DNA from: a candidate division WOR-3 bacterium
GTDB lineage: Bacteria; Hydrothermota; Tepidihabitantia; Tepidihabitantales; Tepidihabitantaceae
Assembly (NCBI GenBank): GCA_039801305.1
Contig: JBDRUL010000001.1
Span: 1 to 24,962, forward strand
Direction of reading: 5' to 3'
Length of the DNA stretch: 24,962 nt
Numbering within the stretch: position 1 is the first letter of the stretch; every line of letters begins with the position of its first letter. Both the position numbers and the translations under genes were made by a program. Of this stretch, positions 13,255 through 21,032 are shown piece by piece. The notes under the pieces were generated by a model. That model was not told where the DNA came from and searched no databases. It saw nothing but the letters and a program-made list of their open reading frames with translations.

Positions 13255-14292
13255 TCAGATCACCCTGACCCGGCCTGTACCAGCTTCAACCCGGCCGATT
13301 GCCACCGCTGTGTCAATCCCGGCCGAGTGCAGACGGCTGACCAGATAGTCAGCACGGTCAGCTGGTACCGACAACAGCAGACCACCTGAAGTCTGGGCAT
13401 CACATAGCAGCAGGCGCTTCGTCTCAGGAACGTCAACACCAAACTCAGCGCGCGACTGCATGAACTCGTAGTTTCTTATCGACCCACCCGGAAAAAACTC
13501 CCTGCGGGCGAGCTCCTCTGCCCCGGCAACGAACGGTATCCGCTCTGATTCAATCTCGAGATCGACCCTGCTCGCACCTGCCAGCTCCCAGGCATGACCC
13601 AGCAACCCGAAACCGGTGACGTCAGTAGCAGCATTCACCCCTACTTCGCACATCACCTCAGCAGCAGTACGATTAAGCTCGCACATGACCCGGTTTGCCG
13701 CTGTGACTGTCTGCGAATCCGCAATACCAGCCTTTACCGCGGTCGTGATCACTCCGATACCCAGTGGCTTCGTTAGAACCAGTACGTCCCCCGGGCGGGC
13801 GCCAGCATTGGTCACGATCCGATCGGGATGGACCAAGCCCGTCACCGCCAACCCGCACTTCAGTTCCGTATCCCTAGTTGTATGTCCACCGGCAACAACC
13901 GCGCCAGCTTCCATCACCTTGTCCCAGACGCCAACGAGCATATCCCTAATCGTCTCATGCGCCAGCTCGCCGACCGGAAACCCGACAATGCAGAGAGCCG
14001 CCACTGGTCTGCCGCCCATTGCATAGACATCGGAAAGGGCATTCGCTGCCGCAATCTGTCCAAAAACCCTCGCATCTTCAGCAACCGGCGTCAACACATC
14101 AACCGTCAGCACGAGAGCCGTGTCTTCGCTGATCGCATAGATCCCGGCATCATCGGCGGTGTCACTGCACACCAGCAGCCGCGGATCAGAGAAAACAGGA
14201 AGCTGCCGCAGGACCTGCAGCAGGTCTTCCTGACATACCTTGCTGGCTCAGCCGGCTGCACGCGCGTAGTCGATCAGTCTTTTTTCTCGCAT
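13255..14292 (-). CDS. selD: Selenide, water dikinase (selenophosphate synthetase), selenocysteine form, 345 aa
   Basis: The track ORF starts at 14172, but the frame extends through an in-frame TGA (14248-14250) to ATG 14292, giving MREKRLIDYARAAG-U-ASKV. This matches the SelD GC/U-x-x-K active-site motif. The rest shows DDAGIY, TVDVLTP, AANALSDVYAMGG, TDVTGFGLLGH and DAQTSGGLL. Confidence 0.96.
14218..14245 (-). promoter_or_regulatory. SECIS-like hairpin of selD
   Basis: Immediately 3' of the UGA: CAGC-A-AGGT...ACCT-GCTG, a bulged stem with a G-starting apical loop. Confidence 0.75.
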
Positions 14293-14296
14293 GGCT

Positions 14297-14890
14297 TCAT
14301 ATCCTGAGAACGTCTGTTGCCGCGGTCATGATCTCAACGAGCTCGTACATGTTGGACACCTGCCCGACCCGGGTCTCGCCTTTGAGGCCGTAGTAATCCA
14401 GACAGGTACCGCAGACACGGATTGTAAACCCCAGACGCTCCAGCCGATTCAAAGTATCAAGGACAGCCGAACCAGCAACAGCCAGCTTCACTCCGCCATG
14501 TACAAGGACGATGGTAGCCGGCTTGGCAGGTACCTCGGCCAGCGAACGAAGAAAGAGCTCCATCAGCAGCTTGCCCAGCTCTTCGCTGCCTGTTCCAAAC
14601 TGTTCAGAAGCAATCATCACGACCCGGTCTGAGACCGCCGGTTTCTGGATTGACCCACCACCGGGACTGAGTTCGATCGAATACGTGTCTGGTACGTCAT
14701 CCAGCATGAGAACCGAGTATCCGCATTTTCTGGCAAATCTTGCAATATTGTCACAGACATCGGCACTATCTGCGACCACTCTCAACGTCCGCCCAGGATT
14801 CGATTCTATGGCTGAACGGACGCGAATAACGGGTTCAGGACAGTTGAGACCCCGAACGTCCACCAGTACCGGTGCGCCGTGTCCAGTCAC
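14297..14890 (-). CDS. yedF: Sulfurtransferase-like selenium metabolism protein YedF (TusA/SirA domain + DsrE-like domain)
   Basis: N-terminal VDVRGLNCPEPV (TusA CPxP motif). C-terminal FGTGSEELGKLLMELFL...GVKL...VCGTCLDYYGL...GQVSNMYE. Directly upstream of selD. Confidence 0.88.
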   Translation of the reverse strand: MTGHGAPVLVDVRGLNCPEPVIRVRSAIESNPGRTLRVVADSADVCDNIARFARKCGYSVLMLDDVPDTYSIELSPGGGSIQKPAVSDRVVMIASEQFGTGSEELGKLLMELFLRSLAEVPAKPATIVLVHGGVKLAVAGSAVLDTLNRLERLGFTIRVCGTCLDYYGLKGETRVGQVSNMYELVEIMTAATDVLRI

Positions 14891-15177
14891 TACGTACCTC
14901 CGTTCGGACAGTAGGTGTCTACGGAGTCGGGCGCGATACCAGAATTCCTGAGCAGACTCAGGGCAGCCGGCACCTGCGTATCATCAAGTACAAGAACAAC
15001 ACCACAATCAGCCAGCCGACGGGGGGCAGCTATCACTTCGATACCCCGATCTTTCAGGACCCTTGCGGCCGAAATCAACTCCTGCACCGTTGCAAACGAG
15101 AACGAAGTAAGTTCCTGCAGACAGGGTTCGGCCAAATGCTGTTGGCCAGAACTGGCATCTTCTCTTTCGCCGTTCAT
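14890..15177 (-). CDS. DUF3343 family protein (putative Se/S carrier)
   Basis: FATVQELISAARVLKDRGIEVIAAPRRLADCGVVL matches the F-x-S/T...LK..GI...PR...CG..L pattern. Its stop abuts the yedF start. Confidence 0.75.
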   Translation of the reverse strand: MNGEREDASSGQQHLAEPCLQELTSFSFATVQELISAARVLKDRGIEVIAAPRRLADCGVVLVLDDTQVPAALSLLRNSGIAPDSVDTYCPNGGT

Positions 15178-15261: not shown

Positions 15262-15918
15262 CTATTTCACGAGCACACATAACCGTGGCGCAGAGCCTCC
15301 CGCAACAGACCAGAGCAAATATACGCCCGCAGGCAGGTGACGAATACTGTTCTCTCCCGGCCACAGATTGCCTACACGACGACCAGCTGCATCAAACAAC
15401 TCGTACCGTCCGTAACCACGGAGCCAACCGACAGCAACTGTCGCTGTTGAACCATTCTTACCAAGACCAGCCTGATTTAGCTCATCCACACCAGCACCTG
15501 CAAATGTGCGGGTCGTAATAGAATCCTTCAACGTCGGATCGCCCAACGACCGTACCCACAGATTTACAACTGCTTCACCAGGAGTTGTGCTGGTATAGAC
15601 GGTAACATGTATCGCCGTATCTGCCTCGCCAACTGCGAGGGTGTCGTACAGCAAGACACCCGGCTCGGCTCAGCCGAAGCGCGTACAGTAACTGACCACC
15701 CAATCCGGGACAATGCTAATGACCCGGCAATCCAGTTCGTAGACATCGCGCTCCGTGCCGGTATTGACCAGCGAGAAGTGATATTCGACCACTTCCCCGG
15801 GCTGGACATACTGAACAGTGTCACTCCGGCAGAAGAAGTCGAAGGCGTGGCCGGCATGTACCAGTGGAGTGTTGATTGCCACCAGCAGTCCTGCCATCAA
15901 CAGCAAGCGGAGTGCCAT
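15262..15918 (-). CDS. Putative secreted selenoprotein, 218 aa (signal peptide, Ig-like domain with W-x4-C-x4-U, T9SS-like C-terminal tail)
   Basis: Track ORFs 15670-15918 and 15262-15654 are in the same frame and separated only by TGA 15670-15672 plus 5 sense codons: ...PDWVVSYCTRFG-U-AEPGVLLYDTL.... SD AAGGAG precedes ATG 15918, no SD precedes 15654, and a SECIS-like hairpin follows the TGA. Confidence 0.85.
15636..15667 (-). promoter_or_regulatory. SECIS-like hairpin after UGA 15670-15672
   Basis: CGAG-ccg-GGTGTC-ttgctgtac-GACACC-CTCG: a 6-7 bp perfect upper stem with a bulged lower stem. If U-A closes the loop, the apical loop GCUGU starts with G, 17 nt from the UGA. Confidence 0.75.
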
Positions 15919-15921
15919 CTT

Positions 15922-16698
15922 TCATCTCCTTTCCAAAACAGGCGTTCGCGCCGCCTGCAACACTTTTCGCGTCGTTCCTTGTTGAATGAAGGCTACTACC
16001 GCTAACCGATCCCGGCGCCAGAAGCCGGCCAAGGGTAATCTCTCGGCAACTTCACTTGTCTCAGCTCTTGAAATAACCACTGGACGGCCTTCTGGATCGG
16101 GTAGCAGCGCCCGCATCACCGAATTGAATACTGAGTCTGTTGCACCGGTCTGGGTAGCCCGTATGCTATCTTCGGTAATCACCGTGAGCAGCCGTAATGT
16201 CTCGGCCGGAGTCGAATCAACCCCCCAGAGCCGCACAACCACTCTGATGGTATCAGTGCTGACGTCCGCCTCGACAGCAATCTGTGCCAAGGGTCTGCTG
16301 CTCCTGGCTCCCAAAATATAGTTACGGAAAGTCGGATAGTTGTATTGCGGACCCGGAGTCCGCACGACCTCGCCGCCGTCAAAGACCGTTGCGGGCTCAC
16401 CACCGGTCTCGTAGTAGAACGCCCGCCGTCTCTCTACATACTCGGGCGAAAGAGTGTCGCCGGCAACTCGACGATGATAAGCGATAACAACGACACTGTC
16501 CTTGAACTCGCGCACCAGGCTGTCCAGAGCATGCGCCGCATACGGACAGTAGACACACCGCTGCCAAGTGAAGAATTCGGCCAGCACAATCCGGTTCGTC
16601 GGCACCAGCGGCACCAGCGGCGCATCTGAACAGCCTGCTGCAACCAGCAGACCAACAGCTACCACCTGCCTCCTAGCAGTACGGCACATCGGCGACAA
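15922..16698 (-). CDS. Omp28-like thioredoxin-fold lipoprotein (CxxC)
   Basis: Lipobox LVAAG|C, then RIVLAEFFTWQRCVYCPYA, VIAYH, GEPATVFDG, FNSVMRALL and VVAFIQQ...VLQAA. The exact start is uncertain. Confidence 0.85.
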   Translation of the reverse strand: MSPMCRTARRQVVAVGLLVAAGCSDAPLVPLVPTNRIVLAEFFTWQRCVYCPYAAHALDSLVREFKDSVVVIAYHRRVAGDTLSPEYVERRRAFYYETGGEPATVFDGGEVVRTPGPQYNYPTFRNYILGARSSRPLAQIAVEADVSTDTIRVVVRLWGVDSTPAETLRLLTVITEDSIRATQTGATDSVFNSVMRALLPDPEGRPVVISRAETSEVAERLPLAGFWRRDRLAVVAFIQQGTTRKVLQAARTPVLERR

Positions 16699-16714
16699 TA
16701 CCCCTTCTCCTGTG

Positions 16715-18502
16715 TTACCGCACCACTACGACTGGTACGACCCTTGCTTCTGTTTCAGCTGCCAGACGCAGAAAATAGGTACCAGCGACAACCGGACCGC
16801 CGGTAGCGTCCCGAAGATCCCATACCAGCCTGCCGGCACCGGCGACTCTGTCTGCAAGCTTGCGCACTATACGACCCGTGACATCGCATACCACCGCTGT
16901 ACCGCAGACGCCGCTAACCAGCGAATAGTCGATTACTGCCTGCTCCCGGACCGGATTACCTGCTCCTGCCAACCGGCAGCGCAGAGTTACTCCCGCCTCA
17001 TCGACTCCTGACACATACGGGTTTACAACGATGTCGTCGACAAACCAGCCCTGATCGGTGACGCTGGCGTCGGATATAAACCGAAATCGCACGCGCAGCG
17101 TCGAGCCCACATATGGAACAAGGCTGAATGTCTGGGGAAGCCAGCTGGTAGCTGCCCCGGTGAATGTTCCCAGTGTGCGCCAGAAGCGACCACCCATATT
17201 GACCTCAACCAGACAGTAGTCCCAGCCCTGCTCAACCGAGTACCACTGATAGTACTGCAGCTGACCGCCGTCACCAACCAGCACGTAAGGACTCACCAGC
17301 CACATATCTGACTCGTTCGGGTACTGACCGCTGGCAGTGGTTCCCCATGACCGGGTTGGCGAGTGCGCCCTGGTGGTTGTCTGTGCCCAGCGGCAGTTGA
17401 TTCCGGATGTCGTCCAGCCATTGAGTCCATGTTCAACGTCGTCGGAGAGTCCGGAACCAACCGTAATCAGCATCGGGAAGGTCGCGCTGCCCAGATCTCC
17501 CTCGACACCGCTGAACTGTAATGTCAGCTCAGCCAGGTGGCCTGAAGGGCAGGCGGTATCTATACTCACCTCAAACGCGCTGGACGGCTCGCGCATCTCG
17601 GCAACACCTATATCCGGGTAACTCGCGTTGGCGGTCACAACCGTGACATACGGATCGTTCGTTGAAAGTGTTGCAGTCGCACCAACTGCAGTCGCTGAGC
17701 CAACGTTGCAGAGTATCGGGCGCAGTTGAACAACCGTGCCCGGTCGAGCCGGTGAGTTGGTATAGCCATAGTACTCCAGTATCGGCCGCTGAACTACGTC
17801 GCAGACCGCGCCCTGATGAATCGCCCGGGTCGAATTGTTCTGAACAAAAACCACGAACCGGCAGTTTCTGGCCACCCAGGACTGTTGCAACGTAAAGTTG
17901 CGGGTACGGACTATTGTGTCATTTGCCGGTACCGTAATTGCCTCGCCTGAAGCATTCGGCAGCATTGTTCTCTCGACGTCGTGCAGACTGTCCATCCCCT
18001 GCCAGTAGTAGGGAATGTGGCTCTCGGTAAGCACGACCTGCAGCTGACCGCTGATCGGCGAACCGGTACTGTTGCGGATAACAATTGTCAGCACTCCACT
18101 GCGGGTTACTGAGTCGTAGGTGGAACTCAGGTCAATACCCAGCTGCACCGGATTGTTGACATGAGTGCGGAAGTAGTCCCAGTAGATCGGAAACATCGTG
18201 CCCGTGTGCATCCCGCCGACAACGCTCGAATCGCCTTCAAGAATCACGGTTGGGTACCCACTGACACCGTAGAAGCTCCGGCGTGCGTTGGCAGTGGCAG
18301 TGTAGAACGGGTCGCTGCTCGACGAGTGGTAGGCAATTGCCGCTACCGAGTCGATGCCCCGGAACTGCAACTCCTCTATCCCGCGTGCCGCGCCCGGGCA
18401 GTACTGGCACCATGTGGCCGTAAAGTCTTCAACCACTACAACACGATGGCCAGCCAGCACCGGCAACGATGCAATCAGCAGTATCGCTAAGAGACTCCTC
18501 AA
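16715..18502 (-). CDS. Secreted Omp28-like CxxC protein with Ig-like and jelly-roll (immune-inhibitor-A/MAM-like) domains and a FlgD/T9SS-like tail
   Basis: Signal peptide, then VVVEDFTATWCQYCPGAA, AIAYH, GYPTVILEG and CRFVVFVQ; later SPYVLV...DYCLVEV...VRFRFISDASVTDQGWFVDDI; tail CDVTGRIVRKL...WDLRDATGGPVVAGTYF. TTG start with SD AAGGAG. Confidence 0.9.
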   Translation of the reverse strand: MRSLLAILLIASLPVLAGHRVVVVEDFTATWCQYCPGAARGIEELQFRGIDSVAAIAYHSSSSDPFYTATANARRSFYGVSGYPTVILEGDSSVVGGMHTGTMFPIYWDYFRTHVNNPVQLGIDLSSTYDSVTRSGVLTIVIRNSTGSPISGQLQVVLTESHIPYYWQGMDSLHDVERTMLPNASGEAITVPANDTIVRTRNFTLQQSWVARNCRFVVFVQNNSTRAIHQGAVCDVVQRPILEYYGYTNSPARPGTVVQLRPILCNVGSATAVGATATLSTNDPYVTVVTANASYPDIGVAEMREPSSAFEVSIDTACPSGHLAELTLQFSGVEGDLGSATFPMLITVGSGLSDDVEHGLNGWTTSGINCRWAQTTTRAHSPTRSWGTTASGQYPNESDMWLVSPYVLVGDGGQLQYYQWYSVEQGWDYCLVEVNMGGRFWRTLGTFTGAATSWLPQTFSLVPYVGSTLRVRFRFISDASVTDQGWFVDDIVVNPYVSGVDEAGVTLRCRLAGAGNPVREQAVIDYSLVSGVCGTAVVCDVTGRIVRKLADRVAGAGRLVWDLRDATGGPVVAGTYFLRLAAETEARVVPVVVVR

Positions 18503-18562
18503 CTTACGCTCCTTTCTTGTAGGTATGTCCCTACCAGAACGTGACGGAAATGCTGTCTTTCT

Positions 18563-18748
18563 TCATACCAGTCCCATGCAGGAGAGACATATCTGTGTAC
18601 TGAGATGCTCGACCCTTGACCAGTCATCCGCGAGAGTACCGATCAGTATTGTGGCAATGGCTAGAGCCAGCAGCCCCACCCCCAAAAGCCGGCGAAATGG
18701 ACGTGTTCCTGATATCAGGGACGAACCGCCCCTCTGTAATTTAGTCAA
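18563..18748 (-). CDS. Small membrane-anchored CxxC protein, CD1871A-like
   Basis: One hydrophobic helix followed by QICLSCMGLV at the extreme C-terminus (ICxxCxG family motif). TTG 18748 has GGAGGT 7 nt upstream; the track start is 18757. Confidence 0.75.
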   Translation of the reverse strand: MTKLQRGGSSLISGTRPFRRLLGVGLLALAIATILIGTLADDWSRVEHLSTQICLSCMGLV

Positions 18749-18802
18749 CTGTTCCACCTCCGCCCCTGTACCAGTAGAAACGCGACGCCGTTCATGTTTT
18801 TC

Positions 18803-18989: not shown

Positions 18990-19757
18990 TCACATCCGGC
19001 TTCGCCACACCGCCCCATTGCCAGTCAGCGCCGCACCGAGCGCACCGACAAGTTGAGGCTCGCGGGGTATCAGCAGCGATACGCCCAGCCTGCGCTCCAC
19101 CAGCGCCCTGACACACGGGTTGAGTGCGACTCCGCCGCACATCACCACCGGTGGCTCAAGCCCCACCCGGCCAACCAGCGCCAGTAGCCGGCTCACAATT
19201 GCCTCGTGCAGCCCCAGTGCAATTGCACGCCTGCTGGTACCACGCGCGATCAGGGAAACCACCTCTGACTCGGCAAACACTGTGCACATCGAGCTGATCG
19301 CTGCCGACTCTTCTGCAAGAAGAGCCTCAGTACCGAACTCGTCCAGCGCATATCCGAGTGTGGTTGCCATCACTTCGAGGAATCGACCCGTTCCGGCTGC
19401 GCAGCGGTCGTTCATTTCGAACTCGCGCTGGCGGCCATTCTCCACGCGGATTGCCTTGGAATCCTGCCCCCCGATGTCGATCACTGTGCGGCAATCTGGA
19501 AACAGCGACTGTGCGCCAAGTGCGTGCGCCCTGATTTCGGTCACAGTGGAACAGCCAAGCCGTTCTGCTGCCAGATGCCGGCCATAGCCGGTTGCGACCA
19601 CCACATCAGGCAGATATTGATCGATCAGCTCTCGTACGCGTGCCCAGGGATCGGTACCGGTGTCGGTGATAACCCGGACACCGATCTGACCATCCTTGAG
19701 CAGAACCAGCTTGGTAGTCCGCGAACCGATATCAAGACCCGCGACAGTCGCTGCCAT
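18990..19757 (-). CDS. ATP-dependent [4Fe-4S] activator (DCCP-R / HgdC family)
   Basis: Motifs AGLDIGSRTTK, TGYGR, DIGGQDSK, MNDRCAAGTGRFL, ISSMCTVFAESEV and GGVALN. Directly downstream of the DCCP gene. Confidence 0.95.
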   Translation of the reverse strand: MAATVAGLDIGSRTTKLVLLKDGQIGVRVITDTGTDPWARVRELIDQYLPDVVVATGYGRHLAAERLGCSTVTEIRAHALGAQSLFPDCRTVIDIGGQDSKAIRVENGRQREFEMNDRCAAGTGRFLEVMATTLGYALDEFGTEALLAEESAAISSMCTVFAESEVVSLIARGTSRRAIALGLHEAIVSRLLALVGRVGLEPPVVMCGGVALNPCVRALVERRLGVSLLIPREPQLVGALGAALTGNGAVWRSRM

Positions 19758-19760
19758 CGC

Positions 19761-21032
19761 CTATTCGAGCTGCTCGATGAAAGCCTCGATGCGCGTGCGC
19801 AGCTGACCGGTATCCTCCTCGGAATAGTCAGTCACGATCTTCAGCGAAGGAATGCCAGCCTGTTTGAGCGCTGCCTCAACCCGCATGGCCTCGATGTTGT
19901 AGCCATGGCAGGTCTGAAGCACATACTGAATCGCGCCCTTCACGCCGAACTCTTGCGCCCGCTGCACCGCTGCGTCGATCCGTTCCTGATTTGGCGTAAA
20001 GCAGGCACAGTTGATCTTCAGATAGCGGTCAGCGATCGCAGTAATCTGCCCCTGCAGGTCCCGGGCGGTCTCGTCTATCAGATTCTCAAAGTAGCGCGAG
20101 CCGGTGCAGCTTTCATCCCAGACGATGACTCCGCCCGACTGCTCCACTAACGAATGGACTTTCCAGTTGCCCATCACTGTCGGGCAGCCGGCAATCATAA
20201 CCCGCTTCGCCCCGGGCTTCAGTGCCGAAACACCCTTGCCGATCCGCTCGGCAAGCTCAGCATTCAGGGCATTGACTGCTTGCGTGAATCTGACCGGCTC
20301 GTCAGCCAGCGCCACCTGCATCACCACCAGAGCGTCCAGCCCGGAGATCGGCGGCGGATCGACCTTACGGAGCTCAGCCAGCTTCTGCAGTGCCCGACGC
20401 TTCTCGTTCATTATCCGGATTGCTTCAGCGAGCCGGTTTGGCTCAACTTTCGTACCAGAAAGCTCCTCCAGTTTCAGCCGGAACTGATCCACTTCTGACC
20501 GCCACAACTCCGCATCCAGCCTGCCCTTCTTCTGCGGCAGCTCCATCACGTGGAAGTTCACCCTGCCCGAGAGAATCTCCCAAGTCTTCTTCTTTGCATC
20601 GCAGGTCGTCTCACCCACTGCCAGGCTCTTGACCGGCCCATACGGACAGGTCTTAGAAAACGCCAGACCCAGTGTGGACTTCACAAGGGGGCAGATGTCA
20701 CGTGGAAACATCTTCTCCGCATAGGGGATTGAAGCCTGTATTCCGCCACAAAGCGCGACCGGAACAGTGTTCGCTGCCATGGCAAGTTCTTCAGGAACGT
20801 AGATGCAGAAGGTACCGACAGTCTTCTTCCCGGCTTTCTTGCTCTCCACCAGCTCCGCCACCCGTCCACCGTGCGCCTCATGCAGCGCCTTGTCAAAGTA
20901 AGCCATCGCCTGCGGACGATTGGTCTGCGCACCAACAGTCATACGGAACAGCCGGTCGGTTGCCGCCTGCATCTCGTCATGCAGCGCCACATCCAAGCCC
21001 AGCTCCCTGAGCAGCTCTCTGTGTTCTGACAT
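19761..21032 (-). CDS. Double-cubane-cluster-containing anaerobic reductase (DCCP family, HGD-D fold)
   Basis: The N-terminus ELGLDVALHD...NRPQAMAYFD...HGGRVAEL is followed by VGTFCIYVPEEL, PRDICPLVKS, GETTCDAKKK, DESCTGSRYFEN, INCACFTPN, LQTCHGYNIE and DTGQLRTRIEAFIE. It is paired with an activator gene as in DCCP/DCCP-R. Confidence 0.9.
   Translation of the reverse strand: MSEHRELLRELGLDVALHDEMQAATDRLFRMTVGAQTNRPQAMAYFDKALHEAHGGRVAELVESKKAGKKTVGTFCIYVPEELAMAANTVPVALCGGIQASIPYAEKMFPRDICPLVKSTLGLAFSKTCPYGPVKSLAVGETTCDAKKKTWEILSGRVNFHVMELPQKKGRLDAELWRSEVDQFRLKLEELSGTKVEPNRLAEAIRIMNEKRRALQKLAELRKVDPPPISGLDALVVMQVALADEPVRFTQAVNALNAELAERIGKGVSALKPGAKRVMIAGCPTVMGNWKVHSLVEQSGGVIVWDESCTGSRYFENLIDETARDLQGQITAIADRYLKINCACFTPNQERIDAAVQRAQEFGVKGAIQYVLQTCHGYNIEAMRVEAALKQAGIPSLKIVTDYSEEDTGQLRTRIEAFIEQLE

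Follow-up and report, generated by a model that had tools for sequence, protein, structure and literature searches.

What could be the role of four exported proteins, each with a pair of cysteines or a cysteine and a selenocysteine (Sec), whose genes are embedded among those for cytoplasmic selenium, iron-sulfur and corrinoid proteins? The question is raised by a stretch of 24,962 nucleotides from a candidate division WOR-3 bacterium (positions 1 to 24,962 of contig JBDRUL010000001.1, assembly GCA_039801305.1; hereafter the window). An earlier reading of the window (hereafter the original prediction) had taken the four genes for a membrane-to-surface thiol/selenol redox relay that possibly reduces or captures extracellular selenium or polysulfide species for the yedF and selD genes downstream. 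From our point of view, the four genes, termed A, B, C and D in the following, probably encode a conserved cell-envelope thiol/selenol-disulfide exchange module. The system is a variant of known envelope thiol-disulfide systems with thioredoxins of the HBP35/Omp28 type, and it comprises two unannotated families that contain selenoproteins. The redox part of the original prediction is thus supported, namely by the interchange of Sec and cysteine, the HBP35 fold of protein C, natural C-D fusions, and neighboring genes for TlpA-like redoxins and a membrane polyferredoxin.

The four open reading frames (ORFs), which carry CLSC, CQYC, CVYC and C-x4-U motifs as originally described, follow each other head to tail on the minus strand (Table 1), and only the upper boundary has to be moved, as the longest ORF of A starts at the GTG at 18757 and not at 18748. 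About 45 loci were fetched and their proteins aligned, and 272 genomes of the phylum were searched; G000 denotes the genome of the window, other G numbers denote further genomes of the phylum, L numbers fetched loci, f numbers families, and C followed by a number after a genome a contig. Mapping by tblastn identifies B-C-D as a conserved core across families of the phylum, with the order B-D-C in f13 and f14 and without B in G223 and G204, and in three genomes (G164, G266 and G034) a single lipoprotein combines C with D. The pairing of an Omp28 protein with a C-x4-C/U protein, for which the original prediction had suggested a synteny search, hence recurs.

Related arrangements were also found with a profile search of 1.8 billion representatives, which returned 38 close members. 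Many representatives join an N-terminal FTxxxCxNCP thioredoxin/Omp28 part to at least one D domain with a Cx4-6C-(Y)-P motif, and proteins with tandem D domains occur among them as well. A ResA/TlpA-like redoxin is encoded upstream and a DUF6029 protein downstream of the Omp28-D protein in G266, G034, L054/L055 and L056, and a TlpA-DUF6029 fusion adjoins a four-domain D protein in L057. The latter fusion (L057:8971-10947) is a single protein of 658 amino acids (aa) with a TlpA/AhpC-TSA-type redoxin and DUF6029; since both are joined in one chain, DUF6029, which is probably an outer-membrane barrel, may work directly with the redoxin. The run in G131 comprises Rrf2, C (Sec form), D (Sec form), SelA, an ORF without annotation, a TlpA-like redoxin, DUF6029, an A-like protein, a NapH/MauN-like polyferredoxin and a GltD-like flavoprotein, and the neighborhood in G034 holds a similar set. 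The ORF without annotation, located between SelA and the redoxin (L036:5898-6509), encodes 203 aa and has no Pfam match.

Protein D is encoded in one frame with a TGA at 15670-15672 and, upon read-through translation, reads WVVSYCTRFG-U-AEPGVLLYDTLAVGE and onward into its tail, so that the motif stands in the context YCTRFG-U-AEPG after the signal peptide. Only five columns are invariant among 37 aligned sequences, and C78 and C/U83 belong to them; position 83 is Cys in 31 of the sequences and TGA in the other six. The TGA forms come from six genomes or assemblies of two families (the window, the independent Logan assembly L005, G223, G204, G131 and G139), and all other homologs (about 30) have TGC or TGT at this codon. 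In C of G131, which reads R-U-TYC, Sec occupies the position of the first active-site cysteine, and Sec-form orthologs of A read I-U(TGA)-LSCMGLV or I-U-LPC (L001, G223, G204, G183 and G188). The UxxC form of Omp28 homologs, whose existence the original prediction had put up for examination, was found both as UTYC in this C protein and as UAYC in a paralog of G197 at a second locus described below. The carrier of Sec varies from cassette to cassette: it is D only in the window, A only in L001, G183 and G188, A and D in G223 and G204, and C and D in G131, and the cassettes of G197 and G207 are free of Sec, as is the linked SelD, which is likewise a Cys form. Such interchange of Sec and Cys within the motifs of A (UxxC), C (UxxC) and D (Cx4U) supports the thiol/selenol redox reading.

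A hairpin of the form CUCGC-N5-GCGAG, 33 nt after the UGA, is found in all six TGA-form D genes and in only one of 29 Cys-form genes (Fisher's test, p = 4e-6, not corrected for relatedness). It has a G within the first two bases of the loop, and its stem never varies and hence offers no covariation; we regard it as a candidate Sec insertion sequence (SECIS). Taken by itself, the stretch that follows the D UGA folds with an unexceptional energy (z = -1.4), and it is the cross-genome comparison that singles the hairpin out. The single Cys-form gene that can form it (L003:2679-3338) keeps it nearly intact (CCCUCGCAGUUGGCGGGG) and is nested in a Sec clade, and thus looks like a recent replacement of Sec by Cys. 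The D tree requires at least three Sec/Cys changes, with TGA forms placed among intact Cys forms, and because the identical hairpin is found in two families, this suggests an ancestral Sec form of D that was repeatedly replaced by Cys. In the Sec-form A genes, all five tested have a (G/C)GGCC-loop-GGCC(C/G) hairpin that starts about 15 nt after the UGA and whose outer pair covaries; the same stretch folds with -9.1 to -11.4 kcal/mol in Sec forms versus a weaker -6.5 to 0 in Cys forms. Of the Sec machinery, G000 encodes SelA (contig C258), SelB (C17) and two SelD proteins. A literature search on WOR-3 together with selenocysteine yielded nothing relevant.

Homologs of D are present in 74 of the 272 genomes in a six-frame search, and one database homolog found by protein search is named candidate division WOR-3 bacterium. 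The protein has no Pfam or NCBIfam match, and no solved structure related by sequence was found. Its AlphaFold2 model is predicted with high confidence over residues 30-140 (pLDDT, the predicted local distance difference test, about 98) and represents a generic Ig-like sandwich of the NEW3/CARDB/DUF11/FixG_C/MG-domain type according to structure search, in which one member of the cysteine pair terminates strand 74-78 and the other is located in the subsequent loop. Behind this domain come a disordered linker and a small tail, likewise a beta-sandwich, which resembles the C-terminal ends of at least nine further ORFs of G000.

Proteins B and C can be assigned more closely. Both exceed the cut-off of the Pfam Omp28 family (PF11551; 34.9 bits) with 68.3 and 47.6 bits, respectively; B in addition matches InhA-like_MAM (36.3 bits), and its C-terminal tail shows a weak similarity to FlgD_ig (E=0.003, 18 bits, below the cut-off of 27) and no match to the Por_Secre_tail model. 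The WCxYCPG motif of B is retained in all four aligned orthologs, and C23 of the lipobox as well as C48 and C51 of C are invariant among 32 aligned sequences. The AlphaFold2 model of C (pLDDT 87) consists of a thioredoxin-like alpha/beta half that bears the CxxC motif, followed by a beta-sandwich, and its best match in the PDB is HBP35 of Porphyromonas gingivalis (5y1a; E 2.4e-12, TM 0.71 over 248 columns), ahead of the DUF1223 protein 2axo and the Omp28 domain 2r2c. A thioredoxin fold with a CxYCP(G) site and a subsequent beta-sandwich, as in HBP35, is thus found in the model of C, and the corresponding motifs are WCQYCPG in B and RCVYCPY in C. HBP35 is a surface thioredoxin and a cargo of the type IX secretion system, whose C48-x-Y50-C51-P-G-G site outpaces E. 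coli thioredoxin in the reduction of insulin and requires both cysteines for this activity; hbp35 also complements an E. coli dsbA mutant, and hemin binding maps to the non-thioredoxin half of the protein (PMC2907840). C superposes on 5y1a, and B shares with HBP35 the C-x-Y-C-P-G active-site pattern and a putative export-and-anchoring C-terminal domain. There are, however, clear differences: sequence identity to HBP35 is about 15%, C, being a lipoprotein, lacks a sorting domain, B contains an additional MAM / choice-of-anchor J domain, and HBP35 has no known Ig-like Cx4C partner, small CxxC membrane protein or Sec forms.

A further relative is the Omp28-related selenoprotein family NF045500 (Omp28_seleno), which corresponds to the 'hypothetical protein GOS_C' with a UxxC motif (2026 review, PMC13188914). 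Over the whole thioredoxin-plus-sandwich region, both B and C show matches to this model and to that of the Omp28 lipoproteins, and UxxC occurs at the same site in orthologs and paralogs, as in G131 and G197. The scores of the two window proteins are, however, far below the respective cut-offs, with 71.4 and 56.5 bits for NF045500 (cut-off 200) and 56.5 and 61.7 bits for NF033782 (lipoprot_Omp28; cut-off 150), and both carry Cys. Judged by these scores, B and C are relatives and not members of the NF045500 equivalog. Searching the literature for Omp28 together with selenoprotein returned nothing relevant.

In protein A, five basic residues (K6, R9, R19, R22 and R23) precede its one hydrophobic helix, and its acidic tail ends with STQICLSCMGLV (ICLSCMGLV) before a TGA stop; since the basic residues are N-terminal of the helix, the CxxC tail should, by the positive-inside rule, be exposed outside the cytoplasmic membrane. 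C37, C40 and G42 are invariant among 14 aligned sequences, and hmmscan gave no Pfam or NCBIfam match. A word-based homology search returned two proteins only, which we attribute to the shortness of the query and to the truncation of Sec forms in databases, and a genome-wide six-frame profile search detected the family in 205 of the 272 genomes, usually as a single copy. The CD1871A family consists of tiny single-helix proteins that end with I-C-x-x-C-x-G and are encoded beside a membrane 4Fe-4S protein. The original prediction had brought this family into play, and the A family indeed has the same architecture and the same gene order, with a NapH-like protein as neighbor. However, the CD1871A model (NF040920) has no match in G000 at E<=10, although this genome encodes two A-family proteins, nor in an hmmscan of A, so that membership was rejected. 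Many A-family members are selenoproteins, and a literature search found no mention of CD1871A.

The NapH-like neighbor is seen at a second locus of G000 on contig C208 (L063:1-3373), which holds DUF6029, the A-family protein A2 and a polyferredoxin and ends on both sides of them. The polyferredoxin has the motifs FCKLCPQG, CTGCGLCRKVCP and CIRCGECAWKCP, and its counterparts in L036 and L052 match Fer4_5, with its CxxCP loops, and Fer4, with two 4Fe-4S motifs, above the cut-offs and remain below the NapH equivalog cut-offs. The locus is complete in G197, G188, G207, G183 and G194, where it comprises an Omp28-like lipoprotein, a TlpA-like redoxin, DUF6029, A2 and the NapH-like protein; A2 was located by tblastn in G197 and G194 and by profile search in G188 and G183, and was not resolved in G207. 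The NapH-linked A copies of G000 and G197 are UxxC forms. In G197, the cassette next to selD is an all-Cys form, and Sec is found at the second locus, in the Omp28-like lipoprotein (VDE-U-AYC, L064:12543-13268) and in A2 (I-U-LGCMGLG, L064:10377-10508). When coordinates were compared, about 40 of the 44 genomes in the window's family had an A copy upstream of a Fer4_5 match, at a distance of 0.25-0.8 kb. A second copy (A1, the A protein of the window) is found in front of or behind the B-C-D cassette, both in this family and in G176. With one copy next to the polyferredoxin and an extra copy next to B-C-D, A1 is, on gene order, best read as a lineage-specific duplicate of the small membrane protein that is normally encoded just upstream of the NapH/MauN-type polyferredoxin across the phylum.

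Table 1. Positions of the cassette genes, of adjacent genes in the window, and of the second locus of G000.
Feature	Position	Strand	Description
A (A1)	18563..18757	-	64-aa single-pass membrane protein, GTG start 18757; Cys form of the small U/CxxC selenoprotein family
B	16715..18502	-	595 aa; signal peptide, Omp28/HBP35-like thioredoxin fold, WCQYCPG (residues 31-37), MAM / choice-of-anchor J domain, C-terminal sorting-type domain
C	15922..16698	-	258-aa Omp28/HBP35-like thioredoxin-fold lipoprotein; lipobox LVAAG-C (Cys23), RCVYCPY (residues 47-53)
D	15262..15918	-	218-aa exported selenoprotein; signal peptide, Ig-like beta-sandwich, C78-x4-U83, linker, C-terminal sorting-type domain
Candidate SECIS hairpin of D	15624..15640	-	C-CUCGC-AGUUG-GCGAG-G, 33 nt downstream of UGA
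DUF3343-type putative Se/S carrier protein	14890..15177	-	Pfam Se_S_carrier 25.9 bits (cut-off 25); directly downstream of the cassette
YedF (TusA-like and DsrE-like, selenium metabolism)	14297..14890	-	TIGR03527 171.9 bits (cut-off 110)
SelD paralog, cassette-linked	13255..14292	-	itself a selenoprotein with its own TGA (AAG-U-ASK)
Double-cubane-cluster reductase (DCCP)	19761-21032	-	NF040772 457 bits; upstream of the cassette
BcrAD/HgdC-type activase	18990-19757	-	TIGR00241 231 bits; upstream of the cassette
DUF6029, second locus of G000	contig C208 (L063) 16-1467
A2, second locus of G000	L063 1473-1622		50 aa, in-frame TGA, ...AAQI-U-PSCMGLV (Sec form, UPSC)
NapH/MauN-like membrane polyferredoxin, second locus of G000	L063 1656-3347		563 aa

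Within the window, the cassette is part of a run of minus-strand genes separated by short gaps, from about 21854 down to 6075. The flanking genes are those of the original prediction, with the double-cubane-cluster reductase and its activase upstream, where a gene for an S-adenosylmethionine methyltransferase is found as well, and DUF3343, YedF, SelD and corrinoid genes downstream; beyond SelD, they encode a corrinoid protein, two MtaA-like proteins, RACo, two HGD-D proteins and a second activase. Scans of the window against Rfam and for tRNAs gave no matches, and the promoter/terminator scan remained at chance level. The double-cubane reductase and activase are the most consistent cytoplasmic neighbors of B-C-D within the class (L001, L035, L039, L043, L044, L045, L048 and L049). 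Furthermore, a tie of this ATP-driven reductase to selenium genes recurs, and in G134 reductase and activase are located between SelD and SelA.

It could be imagined that selenite, Se(0) or polysulfide from outside the cell forms S-Se-S adducts with the exported dithiol and selenol proteins, which would bind or reduce it and pass it inward to DUF3343, YedF and the second SelD. The gene order seems inviting in this respect. DUF3343-yedF-selD is located within 84 bp of the cassette and apparently belongs to the same operon, this order, or at least selD, follows the cassette throughout family f1, and DUF3343 is syntenic in L003, L005, L034, L035, L039 and L041. The linked selD is a second paralog, distinct from the copy directly downstream of selB on C17 (G000:C17:6754-9588), and both contain a TGA; two selD copies are seen in most genomes of the window's family, and the cassette-linked one is a Cys form in G197, G206, G207, G208 and G210. 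Different gene orders in the class, namely B-B-D-C-SelD-DCCP-activase-SelA in G134 and C-D-SelA in G131, also connect the module to selenium genes, and SelD lies on both sides of the cassette in G129. Selenoprotein genes, however, often cluster with genes of the Sec machinery for regulatory reasons, and the DUF3343-yedF-selD adjacency may merely reflect such clustering. The selD adjacency is limited to the window's family and a few relatives: loci of f2 and f4 have DCCP-activase without an adjacent SelD, those of G173 and G179 have neither, and at the more distant loci the neighbors are envelope redox genes only. The original prediction had named the occurrence of the cassette without selenium or iron-sulfur genes as the observation that would contradict it, and for the intact B-C-D cassette this is what the fetched flanks of L046 and L047 show, where no such gene was recognized; elsewhere (L051, L054-L057) the forms without a selenium gene among the listed neighbors, which in L054-L057 are mainly a TlpA-like redoxin and DUF6029, are related C-D fusions or tandem-D proteins and not the cassette as such. 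D moreover occurs in three genomes, G173 (98% complete), G128 and G140, in which no SelD scored above the family cut-off, the A family extends to genomes of f6 and f15 without a SelD match, and the cassette encodes no selenium importer. As such, B-C-D without selenium genes and D in genomes without a detected SelD indicate that the cassette is an autonomous module whose placement next to selD is lineage-specific. Selenium or polysulfide capture for the yedF and selD genes is thus not supported as the general role of the module, and we consider it unlikely overall, while the recurrence of the selD, selA and double-cubane link in two gene orders of the class leaves room for a lineage-specific selenium role.

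Three further explanations deserve consideration, all of them less probable in our opinion. The CxxC and Cx4C/U motifs could serve as ligands for thiophilic metals such as Cu(I) or Hg, with the TlpA-like redoxin keeping these motifs reduced, the polyferredoxin acting as a CcoG-like cupric reductase and DUF6029 allowing passage across the outer membrane. TlpA-type redoxins reduce copper chaperones, the polyferredoxin weakly matches CcoG/FixG besides NapH, the fold of D matches C-terminal Ig-like domains of FixG in the AlphaFold database (24% identity), and a distant fusion protein shows a faint, non-significant match to CtaG/Cox11 (E 0.24, 11.9 bits versus a cut-off of 25); yet all these matches fall far short of the respective cut-offs, the module has no conserved neighbor that would transport, chaperone or sense metals (Rrf2, in two loci, is unspecific), and HBP35 as the best characterized structural relative is a thioredoxin and no metal chaperone, which makes metal handling improbable. 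Even less can be said for the capture of heme or corrinoids at the surface, as proposed for HBP35, in the service of the flanking corrinoid methyltransferase genes. HBP35 does bind hemin, with the part outside its thioredoxin domain, and mutants in hbp35 show poor growth under hemin limitation (PMC2907840); in f1, f4 and G129, moreover, genes for corrinoid, MtaA-like and RACo proteins form a cluster that includes the cassette or lies close to it. Hemin binding, however, does not need the cysteines, which are invariant and Sec/Cys-exchanged here, and outside the class the module mostly occurs without corrinoid genes in its vicinity, so that we regard this explanation as very unlikely. Lastly, the TGA of D could be a true stop or D a pseudogene, with the cysteine pairs being ordinary structural disulfides of unrelated surface proteins. 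The public gene calls, which split D into ORFs of 82 and 130 aa, and the unexceptional folding energy after the UGA would fit, but the frame stays open through the conserved sorting-type domain, the TGA recurs at the same, otherwise invariant Cys codon in two families, its hairpin is specific to the TGA forms, Sec machinery is present, and the tree puts the TGA forms among intact Cys forms; we give this possibility hardly any credence.

With respect to the exchange module, which we prefer to these alternatives, the analysis shows the genes, their export signals, the invariant motifs, the interchange of Sec and Cys, the folds, the fusions and the synteny, from which we infer how electrons might flow and between which partners. 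A cytoplasmic reductant would feed the polyferredoxin together with an A-family protein, whose tail would present its (U/C)xxC pair on the outer side of the cytoplasmic membrane, or a CcdA-type protein, or both. From there, electrons would reach periplasmic thioredoxin-fold proteins, namely C and a TlpA/ResA-like redoxin encoded elsewhere, and could then be handed to D, an Ig-like partner domain with an invariant Cx4C hairpin that contains Sec in G000, and to B, which would be displayed through its C-terminal sorting domain. These proteins, of which B and the lipoprotein C are of the HBP35/Omp28 type, would keep a surface substrate or protein reduced.

Such a scheme resembles the DsbD/CcdA - TlpA/ResA/CcmG pathways in that an Ig-like domain with a hairpin cysteine pair would exchange with thioredoxin-fold partners outside the cytoplasmic membrane, and a ResA/TlpA-like redoxin is the commonest neighbor of the module in other lineages. 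This likeness is a functional analogy only. The Cx5C-YPP pair of the DsbD N-terminal domain (nDsbD) is located near its C-terminus, whereas the pair of D is mid-domain; and the cassette lacks a DsbD_TM gene, with gene order pointing to a NapH-type polyferredoxin and the small U/CxxC protein as the membrane partner instead. The distant D-like repeats read C-x4-C-Y-P-P, and the sole DsbD_N signal is a local match of 29 positions (25.8 bits) in a distant repeat protein, P0032.

Several points weigh against the exchange module. Homology of D to nDsbD (PF11412) had to be rejected, with an hhalign probability of 0.1 against E. coli nDsbD, no Pfam hit, nDsbD outside the top structural matches and the cysteine pair differently positioned, and the generic Ig-like sandwich of D is without a specific functional match. 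The window cassette itself has no gene for a TlpA-like redoxin, DUF6029 or a NapH-like protein, and CcdA/DsbD_TM was not found in the 63%-complete G000, although 33 of 44 relatives have it; likewise, ARAGORN detected no tRNA-Sec among the 32 tRNAs of this incomplete genome. The synteny comes largely from related genomes, so that the counts are not independent. Moreover, a protein with a single helix could not by itself carry electrons across the membrane, and its proposed pairing with the polyferredoxin is drawn from gene order. As a separate observation, a CcdA/DsbD_TM homolog is encoded 2.5-8 kb from the cassette in G223 (L034, G223:C116:17042-17677), G196 (C9), G197 (C2) and G201 (C14).

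One could further speculate that the (U/C)xxC family and the NapH-type polyferredoxin form a transmembrane conduit independent of DsbD and CcdA, which feeds a Sec-rich relay of thioredoxin-fold and Ig-like Cx4(C/U) proteins toward the surface, and that A1-B-C-D is a duplicated branch of this system that was recruited to the selenium/double-cubane/corrinoid cluster. We put this forward tentatively, as a possible but rather doubtful extension of the exchange module.

Overall, the present analysis defines two Cys/Sec-switching families without a Pfam or NCBIfam model, a tiny membrane protein and an Ig-like Cx4C/U domain, and ties both by gene order and fusions to HBP35/Omp28-type thioredoxins, a TlpA-like redoxin, DUF6029 and a membrane polyferredoxin. 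The new elements comprise the families D and A, the latter with a polyferredoxin as its partner, besides the fusions of C with D and the shifting of Sec among the members. Public annotation, in which D is split into two ORFs and the Sec form of A is cut before its last residues, can be corrected accordingly, and an adjacent selD alone proves to be an unsafe basis for reading function. The reduction of thiol enzymes beyond the cytoplasmic membrane, notably at the surface, is understood chiefly via DsbD/CcdA, and the components listed here, which are concrete and open to testing, may belong to another reducing pathway of the envelope throughout an uncultured phylum.

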